From positions 1,364,001-1,428,000 of the forward strand of contig OZ024743.1 in NCBI GenBank assembly GCA_964016885.1: a stretch of 64,000 nt of DNA. The letters are read 5' to 3'. A program made the position numbers and the translations under genes. Shown one piece after another: positions 144 to 61,374 of this stretch. The notes beneath the pieces are model-generated. The model worked only from the letters and a program-made list of their open reading frames with translations, did not search any database and was not told where the DNA came from. The stretch comes from Eledone cirrhosa (taxonomy: Eukaryota). Numbering within the stretch: the stretch's first letter is position 1; the number at the start of each line of letters is the position of its first letter.

Positions 144-3100
144 GTGAGTAGATTAATATTTCGTGTTACTATAGTTAAATTGTTTGTATGAGAGAGTGCG
201 CATTTCTCATGAAGACACTCAACTGTATGTGTGTGCTTGTTTATTTTCAGAATTACTGAAGACTGAATTGCATTTTATAGATCCGTATTGAATGTATATT
301 TCTCACAATGTATTGTATATTTGATATTAATTATTCTTTCATCATATAGTTGATCCATGCCATAGTCACCCATGTCAGAATGGTGCAACCTGTTTGAAAG
401 GTGGTACAAATTACACTTGCATATGTACACCCACATATGGTGGTAAAGACTGCACAATAGGTGAGTATAATAAAACACAAATATCATAGTGTATGATTTT
501 CACTTAAAATTCAACTGAATTTACTCTCAATAAAAATGTAATCGTCTTCATAAATTATATTGACATCAGATTCTAATTTTAATAATCTCCTTTTGTCAGA
601 ATATGAAATAAGATCACGTGTTATTTAAGTGGTGATAACTAAGCGAAAACATAGAGTCAAGGACACTCAGACATTCACACAAATGTATAATCACACACAT
701 ACTCAACACGTTCAATCATGTACTGTAGATCAGCAGCGAAAGACGACGAGATTCCGTAAATCATATCATGGTGTGGTGTATATATATATATATATATATA
801 TATGAGAGACGTAAAATAAGAAAATTATAAAATTTAACTTACTTACTAAAATTTCACTCCAACTAATTAGTTTCTGAAAGCGAATAAACGTAGTTTCCGA
901 AGAAACGTACGGAGAAGCCTTTCGTCATCAGGGAAGTCTATTCTCAGCTAAGTTTCCAGGCAATACGTGGACACAGGAAACTTATACAAAAATAATTCAG
1001 TGGATGGAAAAAAGCAAAGCGTGGTCTAAGTTCCAAGCTATTGAAAAAATCACTGCCTACTGCGTCGGTGGCAAATTCAAAAGAATCAATCACGTGACAT
1101 CGAGGTCAATCAGTGAAGAGTGGTTTGTTAAAAAGACAGCAGCCGGACTGTTACTATGAACTATAGTAGCAGTTTTGGCCAATTTTGGCTCGACAAAATA
1201 ATTTGGAGATAATTATAAAGAATTAGTATATTTACTAACATATATATACAGATGCATACCTATGCCAGCAAATATATAGGTTTTGTCTTAGTAACTTTGT
1301 GGCTCAATGCATGGGGATGCAGAACAATAATATGAGAGACGTAAAATAAGAAAATTATAAAAATTAACTTACTAAAATTTCACTCCAACTAATTAGTTTC
1401 TGCAAGGGAATAAACGTAGTTTCCGAAGAAACGTACGGAGAAGCCTTTCGTCATCAGGGAAGTCTATTCTCAGCTAAGTTTCCAGGCAATACGTGGACAC
1501 AGGGAACTTATACAAAAATAATTCAGTGGATGGAAAAAAGCAAAGCGTGGACTAAGTTCCAAGCCATTGAAAAAATCACTGCCTACTGCGTCGGTGGCAA
1601 ATTCAAAAGAATTAATCACGTGACCTCGATGTCACGTGATTGATTCAGTTGAAAATTGCAAACTCGACTGTCACCACATATCATGAACCTGAAGATTGCG
1701 AAAGCATGAAAGTACTTGTTCAATTAACACTTAGAATTTAATATTCTATCATACTATTTCATTATAATACCATTATATATTTTAAAGGATTGTAAATAAA
1801 ACGAGTAAATCAGACAAAGTTGGAATTCCTCTTATTAATATATATATATATATATATATATATATACAAAATTAAGATAAATCAAAATGAATTTAATCTA
1901 AATCAAAATTATGGGTGTCATGCCAGAAAGGCAAGCGCCATATCACCCGTAAAATAAGTTCTAAGATTCTAATGAATAGGTCCGAGCATTTTATAACAAC
2001 TAGAAATTGATTAACATATAAATAAACATATGAAACAATCACAGAGGATAATTTTTACAAGTGTGCAAGCACACATAGCTAGGTAGGTAACTAAATAAAG
2101 TTAACTAGAACTTCAAAAATAGATACCTTATAATATGATTCATTTTCCCTGTATATATTCCATTAAAGAAATATATTTCACCAATTAATCGAATGGTAAA
2201 CGACGGAGGCCGGTACTTGGATTTTCAACAAGGAAGAAGTCCAGCGATCTGTGTTTACGCATTAATTCAAATCAACGACTGGCCAGTAACGCGTGCTGTA
2301 TCTACTAAAAATACACACATCATACCAGCTTCGTCCCAGTGGCGTGAATAGGGTTATCGACAACTAGAAACAGCAGTCAAGTCCTTTCAACAGAGTTAGC
2401 TCTACAATTAAGGTTAAGGAGCCGTATTTATATATCTATATCCATATATATCTATATATCTATATTCCTTGTTGAAATTCCAAGTACTGGCCTCCGTCGT
2501 TTACCATTCGATTAATTGGTGAAATATATTTCTTTAATGGAATATATACAGGGAAGATTAATCATATTATAAGGTATCTATTTTTGAAGTTCTAGTTAAC
2601 TTTATTTAGTTACCTACCTAGCTATGTGTGCTTACACACTTGTAAAAATTATCCCCTCTGATTGTTTCATATGTTTATTTATATGTTAATCAATTTCTAG
2701 TTGTTATATATACATACATATTTGTTTCTCTCTCTCTCTCCCTCTTTCTCTCGCTGGCTCTTCCTTTTCTCTCTCTATGTCTCTCAATATTATATATATA
2801 TATATATATATATATATATATATATATATATATATATATATATAATGTAGCAGGTAAGTAATATTGTAGAACAATAAAACTATGCATATTTCAGATAAGT
2901 AGCACTCAACAGTTGGTAGAATTGGAGTATATATTAAGGAAGAAATTAAAAGATGTAGAAATTAAATATGTAGACTGGACATTTTCTTGTTGACTAGTGT
3001 TTTTAGGCCTCATATCATGTTACCTTATTTTATCTGATGAGAACACAATTTTTGTCCCAGGATATTATTGTTTTCGAAATGCACATAATAAAATATATGG

Positions 3101-6100
3101 AACTTTTTTAACCATCTTTTAATTTCTTTATATATATATATATATATATATATATATATATATATATATATATATATATATATATATATATATATATAGT
3201 GTATTAGAGAGAGAGAAAGAGAGAGAAGATTTAGAAAGTGAGAGAGAAACTGAGATAATATGTAGACGTGAAGCTGCAAGTGTACCCAAGTTTATACCTT
3301 ATTTGTTTTTATATTTAGTTAAACAATGCAGTTCTAATCCATGCGACAATGGGGGAACATGCGTAGAACAGGGTCCAGATTTCATGTGCCTTTGTTTACC
3401 TGGATATAAAGGAAAGGATTGCGCAATAGGTTTGTATCTGTATTTTTATACCATCAGAATACCATCAGAAATACGTATAGACATACATTACAAAAAGGTA
3501 TCAGAGAATGGCAGCATGGTCACACACTGGTATCTAACGTTCCATCCCGGCAAGTAAATCAAGTCTAATCGGCTTGATAATGTTTTGATGACTACCAAGA
3601 GCGTAATCGAATTTTACAGATGATATTAAATTTCTCAGAAATCGAAAAATTATTCATTTATAAAGGGAGATATACACGATCAAAATCTGAGAACTCGAAA
3701 CCGAAACAATCCCCTAATAATGATTAAAATAGCCTAGCACTAAACAAAACCAACACATACCCGAAATCTAAGAAGCAGCAATCATTAGAGTAGTAAGATG
3801 ATTCAGTAATAACGATACAAGTAATACCTTTTTTTTTCTTCTTGAGGTGTGGTAGTTTGCTTGAAGCATTGTACATATACAAATACGAAATACGTTTGAT
3901 TGTTTGGAAGCCCGACAATGCGTGTTTGGTAATAAGAAAGTAGGATGGTTAGAAAATAGAACACGGTGATGTAATGTATAAGAGTGATGGCGATAGGAAG
4001 TTACCTTAACAATTTTTAATAATCACAAATATTTTCGGACTTACAATTCATTATGAAGGAGAATCGGTAGGGGGGAGGGGGGATCAGAGAGAAACCTGAG
4101 GAATGTCGTGTTTTCGTTTTTCACAAAATCAACCATATTTAAATATACTAGTGAAAACAAATCAGTTTTTATAATTGATTAGTGATATGTTGGGTCGGGG
4201 TGTTGTGTAATGCGTATATGGTAAAGTTTCTGAGAAATATCGTATATATTGATAATCATTTCTATTTCAGTTGATCCGTGTAGTAGCGTTCCATGTTTAA
4301 ATGACGCAACCTGTCTTAACGATGGATCAAATTATACTTGCTATTGCCAATCTGGATACATGGGAGGAAACTGTGAAATGGGTGAGTATTACATGTGCAC
4401 ACACGGACGCATTCACACACACACACGTGTGTATATTATATATATATATATATATATATATATATATATATATATATATATATATATATATATATATATA
4501 TATATATATACATATATACATATATATATATAATTATGTAATAAACAACACAATATAATTATTCCAATACCCAAGGTTTCCCGAAGTTACACGTTTCTAC
4601 CAGAAACGTCTGATATCGCTCATCATATTGTTTATTGCATAATTAAATAGCTCTGTGCTATACATAGAGCACTTTTCTTTCCTTTACCTTTTCCACGGAA
4701 ATACTTTATATATATATATATATATATATATATATATATATATATATATATATATATATATATATACAAATGGAAGTTCAGCCTAATCGAAGCTCTGGCC
4801 GCAGCTATGCTAACGATTGCAATCGGAATGTGCAGCTAAGCACTTAATAAGGTATTTTACCTTAGAGTAATAACATTACGTTTTGACAGCTTGGCACACG
4901 CACACACACACATATATATATATATATATATATATATATATACGTGAAGAAATAAATATAGGAGAACAAACCGTTAAAACATGTTTATTTAAAATAGCAC
5001 CTACGTACATTTCGCCCGAATGAGCTTCTCAAGGGCATAAATAACTAAATAGTGTTCCTTACATGACGCGGAATAGGTTTTTAGAGATAAGTTCACGACA
5101 TATATATATATATGTATATATATATATATATATTAGAAAGTGAGGTTTTTTTTACAAAATGAAAAATAACCGAGATGTCCTACACGAGTGAAAATATAAA
5201 GAAAAAAAGATGAAATCGAAAATGCAACTGGAGTCTTATTTTTTTTTAAATATATATATTTATTTGGTTCCTTTACCGGTTTCGCAATTTTTCTGCTTTT
5301 CAAAAGTAGAGTTGAGATGGATGGTATGTGGTTTTTCTCACATCTGGTTGGTCTCTGAATGTTACTTGTTTTATATGGAAAAAGTGGCTCGAAAAGCCAG
5401 GTTTTTCGAGAAGTAATTTGATTGGTTGGTCAATAATTATAATAAATTTCGCGCCAGTTCGCGTTACAAAGTTCTTCAAACAAGGGGGGGGTGTAACAGG
5501 TTGTTTTTCTCTTATATGAGTGTTTGAATTTCTTTTTACTTAAAAAAAGGGGGGGCTTACGAAGGCTTTTTTTTAATAAACGTAATTTGATTGGTTATAA
5601 ATGAAATTATGACTGTCACGTGAACAAGTTTTCATTAAATTTTCGCGCCCTTATTTGGAAATCTATTCTGTAGCCTTTTTAGAGAATTTTATGACAAGCA
5701 AAAGATAATGGTCAAGAGAAATTGGATGGGAGAATTGTTCTGGTTCAGTGAATATGGTTAGTTCGCTGGGGTGTCCGAATTCAGATTTTCTACTGAATAA
5801 AGAAAGTAAAGATATTTATGTTTATTTATGTGCTTGTGTGTGTGTGTGTGTGTGTGTGTGTGTGTGTGTGTGTGTGTGTGTGTGTGTTTGAATTTCTTTT
5901 TACTAAAAAAAAAGGCTTACGAAATGTGGAAGGAAGCACACGAGTTAGGATATATATATATATATATATATATATATATATATATATATATATATGAAAA
6001 CAGGGAGAAAGAGACGATTATGAGGAAGAAACATTTTTTTTTCCTTTTTTGTTTCTCTCTCTCTTTTTTCTGAGTTAGAAAATGATTAAAACGAAATGTT

Positions 6101-61083: not shown

Positions 61084-61325
61084 AATAAATATGGTTTTAT
61101 AAATATAGTTTCTATTTATTTAATATCATTGTATATTTGTATATATATATATATATATATATATATATATATATATATATATATATATATATATATATTT
61201 ATTTATATATATATATATATATATATATATATATATATATATATATATATATATATATATATATATATATATATATATATATGATAAAGAACACAAGAGC
61301 GTCTACAACATCAAAAGATTTTTAT

Positions 61326-61374
61326 TGGCTTAGAATGTTTCTTCCTTACGTAACCGTAGGATTCTTCAGAGCTA
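61326..61374 (-). ncRNA. Type I hammerhead candidate, stem III mismatch
   Basis: gcu CUGAAGA auccuacg guua cguaaggaa GAAA cauuc UA agc. Confidence 0.55.

Follow-up and report, generated by a model that had tools for sequence, protein, structure and literature searches.

A 64-kb stretch of the genome of the octopus Eledone cirrhosa (assembly GCA_964016885.1, contig OZ024743.1, positions 1,364,001 to 1,428,000; hereafter the window, in whose numbering all positions are given) carries numerous hammerhead ribozyme motifs, which are very probably type I hammerhead folds located at the 3′ ends, or pseudo-long terminal repeats (pseudo-LTRs), of many families of Penelope-like elements (PLEs), likely self-inserted into (TA)n runs and predicted to be slow cutters. 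Hammerhead-bearing PLEs are already known as a kind of element; what is added here is the genome-wide scale, the common mismatch in stem II, and the rule by which a long and a short arm are combined.

The original prediction, made from the sequence of the window alone, had placed complete type I hammerheads at 18 coordinates. At all 18 of them the exact core, CUGANGA or UUGANAA ... GAAA ... UH, was found with zero core mismatch (11 on the minus and 7 on the plus strand); it was parsed directly at 17 sites and read at 61326 by comparison with its family. These sites form 13 families, in agreement with the dozen or so that had been expected (the family letters are labels coined in the present analysis). 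A stem-aware descriptor, which scores three stems with a threshold of ≥8 and tolerates an additional or mismatched base at the foot of stem II, gave 13 matches in the window, namely 11 listed sites, an additional hammerhead at 3034 (+) that was absent from the first list, and a match at 13789, which is AT-rich, has no visible family and is probably due to chance. By comparison, 30 local dinucleotide shuffles of the window averaged 0.07 matches and never exceeded 1, and 11 decoy cores on the real window gave 0–1 matches apiece. The loosening at the foot of stem II followed PMC4209133; a strict first descriptor found only 5–6 motifs because the additional or mismatched base was disallowed. Seven listed sites lie below the threshold: 12663, 28345 and 61326 carry copy-specific damage relative to their families (in stem I, stem III and pair 15.2-16.2, respectively), while the weakness is family-wide in 4997 and 6190 (weak or bulged stem I) and in 38106 and 38152 (2-bp stem II), 4997 also having a copy-specific change of C15.2 to U. 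Since these seven fail as damaged copies or as members of weak or bulged-helix families, the descriptor undercounts. An Rfam scan of the window (E ≤ 1) gave no hammerhead family among the 150 of 171 matches listed, which were mostly miRNA models on microsatellites.

The motif is not confined to the window. The 27 large contigs were sampled at even distances in pieces of 10 kb, of which 99 of the planned 100 exist (region C16 does not); unplaced scaffolds lie outside this sample. The 99 pieces contained 95 matches at score ≥8, versus 0–1 across five shuffles and 0–4 for each of 11 decoy cores; a few of the 95 look like AT-rich chance, the decoys reaching up to 4 per Mb. The resulting density of about 96 per Mb (bootstrap 68–128) extrapolates to ~290,000 hammerhead motifs in the 3.0-Gb genome (95% range 200,000–380,000), and the matches, clustered together with the 13 of the window, fall into 34–51 families depending on the identity cut, which bears out the large and diverse population that had been envisaged. 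A clustering into 141 families was set aside, being inflated by short masked rows. A descriptor that admits either pairing at positions 3 and 8, as had been suggested for a genome-wide check, found C3-G8 in 84 sample matches and U3-A8 in 11, versus 1 for the non-pairing mixes. Of the 95 matches, 60 have a perfectly palindromic stem III; in 21 it is short and nearly palindromic, and in 14 it forms a long hairpin. Solo matches number 67, while 24 belong to inverted pairs and 12 to short tandems, 8 of these being counted in both classes. The proposed (TA)n targeting also holds, as a (TA)5 run lies within 300 nt downstream of 76 of the 90 sample matches with room for it, compared with 29% of random positions. 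Pieces of PLE open reading frames (ORFs), detected with four probes, amount to 29.8 kb over 15 of the 99 sample loci. Foldback stubs without the 5′ core are frequent in the sample loci, that is to say, PLE end insertions outnumber intact hammerheads; two such P-related stubs, starting within stem II or III, lie in the window at 51539-51686 and 60498-60668. Tandem hammerhead arrays were observed at loci L099 (6510-9766, unit ~478 bp, five copies arranged back to back with three on the opposite strand), L054 (1653-3054, unit 467 bp) and L203 (172-792, unit ~310 bp).

The pair 10.1-11.1, next to the core, is mismatched in 37 of the 95 sample matches and paired in the other 58. The mismatch is U.U in 28 (8 of them from one array), and over all loci it was seen in 13 of 30 multi-copy families; in family A of the window it is C.A, combined with a long stem II capped by a cUUCGg loop and a palindromic stem III. 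Family K, like I, has A.A at this pair, and in B and J it is paired. Cervera and de la Pena (2014, PMC4209133) described minimal type I hammerheads in metazoan PLE pseudo-LTRs, which cleave weakly as dimers. The motifs of E. cirrhosa resemble them in type I topology, short palindromic stem III and the U3-A8 variant; in both cases one genome holds many families, most copies are solo and derive from truncated PLEs, and close opposite-strand pairs occur. They differ at the foot of stem II, where a conserved G10.1-C11.1 pair with one additional 5′ base was reported, in contrast to the frequent mismatches and the many A-U or G.U pairs seen here, and in that several stems II here are 30–60 nt long. 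In PMC3088659 U10.1-U11.1 is treated as a surprising, rare natural variant, and core-adjacent mispairs were rejected from the final alignments; C.A and A.A at this pair were not met in the published accounts compared.

Whether the stems are maintained as such was examined in superfamilies A and J, whose members were collected through the downstream flank, not the stems, and aligned as full-length rows; 7 of 23 rows were removed from A (truncated, or duplicates of the window; two window copies and locus L226 are included) and 21 of 45 from J (truncated or near-duplicate). In superfamily A (17 rows) 97% of the cells are paired, 6 of 18 pairs have changed on both sides, and there are 22 double-changed cells, compared with 7.3 in shuffled alignments, none of 500 of which was as high. 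In superfamily J (25 rows) 95% of the cells are paired, with 23 double-changed cells versus 8.2 and again 0 of 500 shuffles as high, while slid alignments of A and J paired only 38–55% of the cells. The covariation among family copies that had been asked for is therefore present, and it is confined to stem II; stems I and III are paired yet nearly invariant. In superfamily J, alignment columns 25 and 49 hold a C.C mismatch within stem II that is retained in nearly all copies, with covarying neighbours, possibly a tertiary contact or a metal site.

When longer genomic copies were followed, 8 of the 13 families (12 of the 18 sites) could be linked to PLE ORFs, six of Hydra type (P, G, D, J, K and C) and two of Neptune type (B and N), and the links of B, N, G, D, J and P were repeated in independent loci, which speaks against mere chance neighbourhood; the connection with PLE reverse transcriptase (RT) and GIY-YIG endonuclease (EN) that had been put forward is thereby upheld. 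One near-complete element in the window belongs to family P, with a long 3′ end at 8540 and a short 3′ end at 12771. All 71 scored candidates of this family have 97–100% amino-acid identity, many have open frames of 784 aa, the tandem period is 3528 bp, and the hammerhead sits in the repeat that flanks the ORF on both sides. Pfam assigned no family to the PLE ORF of the window, and its assignment is based on motifs and homologues. DKT occurs in P and K and in 110 of the 120 best homologues; P, K, G, D, J and C have a CxCX5C linker, lack CCHH, and carry CxxC and CxH near the C-terminus; and the N-terminal motif of P is RWR (among the 120 homologues, RWK 70 and RWR 17). B and N, on the other hand, have a CX2-5CxxC linker and CCHH with two Cys inside GIY-YIG, with DKG in B, for which RT and EN stretches were found and every fetched copy is broken. 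Partial tandems forming pseudo-LTRs, an inverted 5′-truncated arm and a tail are all present in the elements.

These features agree with those given for the Hydra and Neptune clades by Craig et al. (2021, PMC8557442), who also reported a (TA)n bias and a tail often at a single end, and whose supplement includes Hydra-1_Obim from Octopus bimaculoides. The likeness to the Hydra clade extends to DKT, the CxCX5C linker, the lack of CCHH, CxxC and CxH near the end, (TA)n insertion, the hammerhead, partial tandems, and the inverted arm and tail. The differences are that Hydra elements are generally <3 kb, versus units of 3.5 and 4.9 kb here; that their tails are 30–40 nt, versus 60–130 nt; that the clade has RWK where family P has RWR; and that few families are described outside cnidarians, versus at least six within the 64-kb window.

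The insertions bear the Penelope signature of (TA)n targets, two fixed 3′ ends per family and inverted arms. Among 89 tail-out inverted pairs of five families, 78 combine one long with one short end, where ~44 were expected (P 5e-14): 28 of 32 in B, 14 of 14 in E, 17 of 21 in P, 7 of 8 in D and 12 of 14 in M. This suggests that two start sites are used in a coupled manner. The junctions of B and M are located at palindromes. The foldback at 30073/30155 had been considered as a MITE copied whole; this was rejected, as its junctions vary and its arms are the ends of a Neptune-type element.

In the mechanism proposed, the elements' own RT/GIY-YIG protein likely carries out the insertion into (TA)n. 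Judging from what has been published on other PLEs, it would nick both strands of the AT-rich target, and reverse transcription would begin at two internal sites shortly 3′ of the hammerhead; the foldbacks suggest that each target strand would be primed at one of the two. Most cDNAs would stop early and leave hammerhead stubs, and as these start sites lie ~20–250 nt downstream of the hammerhead, a cDNA need not be long to include it, which would explain why stubs far outnumber full elements. Two cDNAs would then be joined at their truncated 5′ ends, often at palindromes, to give foldbacks, and units without an ORF would likely ride on the same PLE proteins in the manner of non-LTR retrozymes. 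The closest experimental system is Poseidon PAc, a green anole PLE studied in vitro (Frangieh et al. 2024, PMC11167929). Its tail is set by two internal RT start sites, and each target strand is nicked and then extended; the protein, predicted to form a dimer, uses mainly uncut RNA as its substrate and is required for cutting. The AT-rich target, the hammerhead upstream of the start sites and the two start sites with the tail are alike; however, the start site is equal between the strands in PAc, in contrast to the long and short ends paired here.

Cleavage itself is predicted from the conserved core and from related ribozymes, and the RNA would cut slowly, as dimers or with the help of protein; families F and P, whose stem III is a hairpin, would be expected to cut as monomers and the palindromic ones as dimers. 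PMC6765202 cites Lunse et al. (2017) on small PLE hammerheads cutting as dimers. A serious though unlikely alternative is that the folds are kept for binding protein or positioning the RT, with negligible cleavage in vivo and a core that is a structural leftover. In the anole PLE, hammerhead mutants were without effect on insertion, RNA-seq reads starting or ending at the site were absent, and, as said, the uncut RNA and the protein requirement point the same way (PMC11167929). Nor do the 5′ ends of copies pile up at the predicted cut site in 14 families (the row of G, swamped by microsatellite matches, was set aside, and clusters in P and J may represent subfamily divergence). Most copies continue through this site, so that the template was likely uncut, or cut and then re-ligated into a circle. 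That strand bias is absent within the host gene (8 in sense and 11 in antisense orientation, P 0.65) speaks for the same alternative. Against it, the core positions are all kept over 34–51 unrelated families, including the C3-G8/U3-A8 covariation, and the related minimal hammerheads of PMC4209133 do cleave, if weakly, as dimers.

It had also been supposed that the sites are non-autonomous retroelements, and it is improbable that all of them are dedicated retrozymes moved in trans by PLE proteins. This description is true for families A, F, I and H (four families, 5 of 18 sites), which are tail-to-head units without a PLE ORF, of 530, 571–574, ~407 and 2005 bp; short tandem arrays occur in the sample (L054 and L099), and family E has a sharp 5′ boundary without a parent having been found. 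As a statement about the whole class it is refuted, because 12 of the 18 sites trace to ORF-bearing PLEs, two of them being the pseudo-LTRs of a near-complete PLE in the window, and because solo copies prevail over short tandems in the sample. Like metazoan non-LTR retrozymes (PMC7229834; bioRxiv 10.64898/2026.07.22.740005), families A, F, I and H consist of tail-to-head units that lack an ORF and contain a single type I hammerhead per unit, and for animal retrozymes an origin from PLEs has been argued in the latter work. The published units measure 170–400 nt, or 51–972 bp, versus 0.4–2.0 kb here, where the arrays are short and the insertions bear the marks of PLEs, namely (TA)n, an inverted arm and two 3′ ends; the eight ORF-linked families fall outside the definition of a retrozyme unit. 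The H unit in L361, longer than the published animal retrozymes, is possibly a PLE with a lost ORF. In family E, the 5′ ends of copies (window 1644 and L199-L212) cluster ~76 nt above the predicted cut site, at TCAGTT/ACAGTT. This word is initiator-like and also forms a hairpin foot, and it is repeated at some junctions; the 5′ end could be a true RNA 5′ end, with an initiator-like transcription start.

The host gene of these insertions lies on the plus strand, with at least 22 single-EGF exons matched over window 36-60356, and with PAN and VWA exons within 47536-48015 and 58487-59215, respectively; the exons in 21398-29497 are near-identical recent duplicates. The hammerheads lie between single-EGF exons, so their intronic position in one locus, as first described, stands; the notion that they are specially packed there does not, since the density in the genome sample would already give 6.1 matches in 64 kb, against the 13 found (P ~0.07). 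It is very improbable that they regulate the EGF-repeat gene by cutting its introns. Every site is intronic, the arm states differ in three inverted pairs (the B copy at 18030 aside), and the host-sense copy is the damaged one in F and P; in pair C, however, the damaged copy is antisense, the density is close to the genome mean, strand bias is absent, and the window copies are 89–99% identical to dispersed family members. As for chance matches in AT-rich, palindrome-rich repeat DNA, 13789 and a few AT-rich sample matches, at the decoy rate given above, are all that would fit, and the idea is refuted by the shuffles, the multi-copy families, the compensatory changes and the fixed place in PLE ends.

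Several points weigh against reading the motifs as PLE-borne hammerhead folds, or limit it. In superfamily J two of five measures are not above the shuffles (double-change pairs 314/500; further pair types 499/500), and kinship among copies can pass the shuffle control without structure. The support for stems I and III is a between-family comparison, pre-selected by the descriptor. The folding energy of monomers has a z below −2 in just 2 of 14 motifs and is otherwise unremarkable, and the minimum-energy fold of several motifs differs from the hammerhead. The inverted-pair counts draw largely on loci retrieved as top matches rather than on the unbiased sample. The labels Hydra and Neptune derive from motifs and not from a tree, and by these motifs Nematis is not separated from Neptune. 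The ORF link of family C consists of one locus (L377) of a 77%-identical subfamily, and the 2005-bp unit of H is a full tandem in a single locus. The parent element of family E was not found with an AT-rich 3′ probe that failed to recover even the window copy. That of family M was not reached, its relatives having at least 1.5 kb of non-coding sequence upstream, and a PLE ORF was absent at three far-spaced M matches on C13.

Table 1. PLE ends, ORF-less units and hammerheads in the window (a dot in the strand column marks a foldback to which no single strand was given; L numbers are genomic loci)
Feature	Positions	Strand	Predicted cut after	Remarks
Family A unit	800-1640	-		non-autonomous, 530-bp tail-to-head unit, 1.6 copies
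A hammerhead	857-935	-	861	
A hammerhead	1383-1461	-	1387	
Family E stub	1644-1836	+		
E hammerhead	1684-1722	+	1717	U.U at 10.1-11.1
Family F unit	1849-2708	-		non-autonomous, 571-574-bp unit, inverted pair
F hammerhead	2144-2236	-	2152	U3-A8; long hairpin stem III
F mate	near 2465-2560	+		A9 to U
Family M foldback stub	2846-3128	+		
M hammerhead	3026-3095	+	3087	
Family G	4942-5095	-		Hydra-type PLE 3′ end; ORF upstream in L246, L248, L251
G hammerhead	4997-5037	-	5002	U3-A8; bulged stem I
Family B	5136-5835	-		Neptune-type PLE 3′ untranslated region (UTR)
B hammerhead	5271-5306	-	5274	U3-A8
Family N	6095-6494	-		3′ end of second Neptune-type PLE
N hammerhead	6190-6228	-	6194	U3-A8; weak stem I
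Family C foldback	7919-8278	+		probably Hydra-type PLE end
C hammerhead	8084-8176	+	8170	minus-strand mate A9 to C
Family P element	8540-12771	-		5′-truncated near-complete Hydra-type PLE; inverted 3′ arm 11749-12771; (TA)n flanks
P hammerhead, 3′ pseudo-LTR	8651-8744	-	8656	U3-A8
P open stretch, RT + C-terminal GIY-YIG	9884-11743	-		619 aa; residues 152-784 of the open frame in other copies
P hammerhead, inverted copy	12663-12756	+	12751	one stem I pair broken
Family H stub	12922-13276	-		
H hammerhead	13107-13164	-	13111	U.U at 10.1-11.1
Family B foldback, additional	18030-18304	.		G12 to A in hammerhead arm; absent from first list
Family I unit	27986-28515	+		non-autonomous, ~407-bp unit, 1.3 copies
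I hammerhead	28345-28394	+	28386	A.A at 10.1-11.1; stem III change in window copy
Family B foldback	29938-30268	.		within (TA)n
B hammerhead	30073-30110	-		long-tailed arm
B hammerhead	30155-30192	+		short arm
Family D foldback	38008-38212	.		Hydra-type PLE 3′ end
D hammerhead	38106-38143	-		U.U at 10.1-11.1; 2-bp stem II
D hammerhead	38152-38189	+		U.U at 10.1-11.1; 2-bp stem II
Family J foldback	60777-61137	+		Hydra-type PLE 3′ end
J hammerhead	61027-61087	+	61079	palindromic stem III
Family K	61276-61891	-		Hydra-type PLE 3′ UTR; 4890-bp tandem unit and 745-aa open stretch in L327
K hammerhead	61326-61373	-	61330	pair 15.2-16.2 broken in window copy

Other repeats accompany these insertions. 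A GC-rich non-LTR retrotransposon fragment at 26449-28024 (-), with RT and a restriction-like endonuclease-type C-terminus and (TA)n flanks, is presumably HERO/CRE-like, and two adjoining LINE (long interspersed nuclear element) fragments at 40566-46366 (-), with Pfam RVT_1 and beside (TTA)n runs, are taken to be R4/Dong-like. At 38369-38650, and again in L203, lies an AT-rich palindrome whose arms are rich in (TA)/(CA), apparently a separate foldback repeat without a hammerhead. Tandem repeats at 46903-47550, 48570-49140 and 57901-58352 have units of 324, 190 and 40 bp, respectively; the second of these, known as an octopus repeat, was met seven or eight times along the window. Among 10 longer homologues of the VWA exon, the best and the fourth-best are Octopus proteins with 47% identity.

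With regard to scale, published counts are ~2,000 plus 1,300 in Schistosoma, 4,000 in the coelacanth and 9,000 in Xenopus (PMC4209133), that is, thousands per genome versus ~290,000 estimated here with a different descriptor, and 126,247 in the axolotl, over 6000 in a coral and ~5000 in a mussel (PMC7229834). The estimate is thus above all the published per-genome counts compared, of which the axolotl is the highest, although the descriptors are not strictly comparable. The parts available of a review (PMC6155905) contain no per-genome counts, and the words hammerhead and ribozyme are absent from the main text, as available, of an octopus repeat annotation of 2026 (PMC13282606). A literature search for octopus or cephalopod together with hammerhead, with subscription papers mostly outside it, found no census. 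In the 2017 work of Lunse and co-workers ~150,000 motifs were reportedly collected from databases; octopus sequences or the stem II mismatch may already be among what it covers.

Octopus RNA is subject to heavy A-to-I editing. Put together, the observations permit a wider reading, which is offered tentatively and may well not hold in all its parts: E. cirrhosa would harbour the largest hammerhead population in one genome (~3 × 10^5, one per 10 kb, in dozens of families), a large share of which has U.U, C.A or A.A beside the core, a state passed over by standard searches, and yet cleaves; the long and short arms would reflect a dimeric PLE enzyme that primes each of the two target strands at an RNA site of its own; and foldbacks in the tens of thousands would seed introns with perfect double-stranded RNA. 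The core-adjacent mismatch, the commonest single state here, was filtered out by one major survey, and censuses therefore likely undercount. Since stubs and riders without an ORF are found in large numbers beside young families whose ORFs are open, the role of the hammerhead in PLEs and the origin of the tail and inverted arm become testable by counting, and the scale, the mismatch and the coexistence of families may be of interest to specialists.

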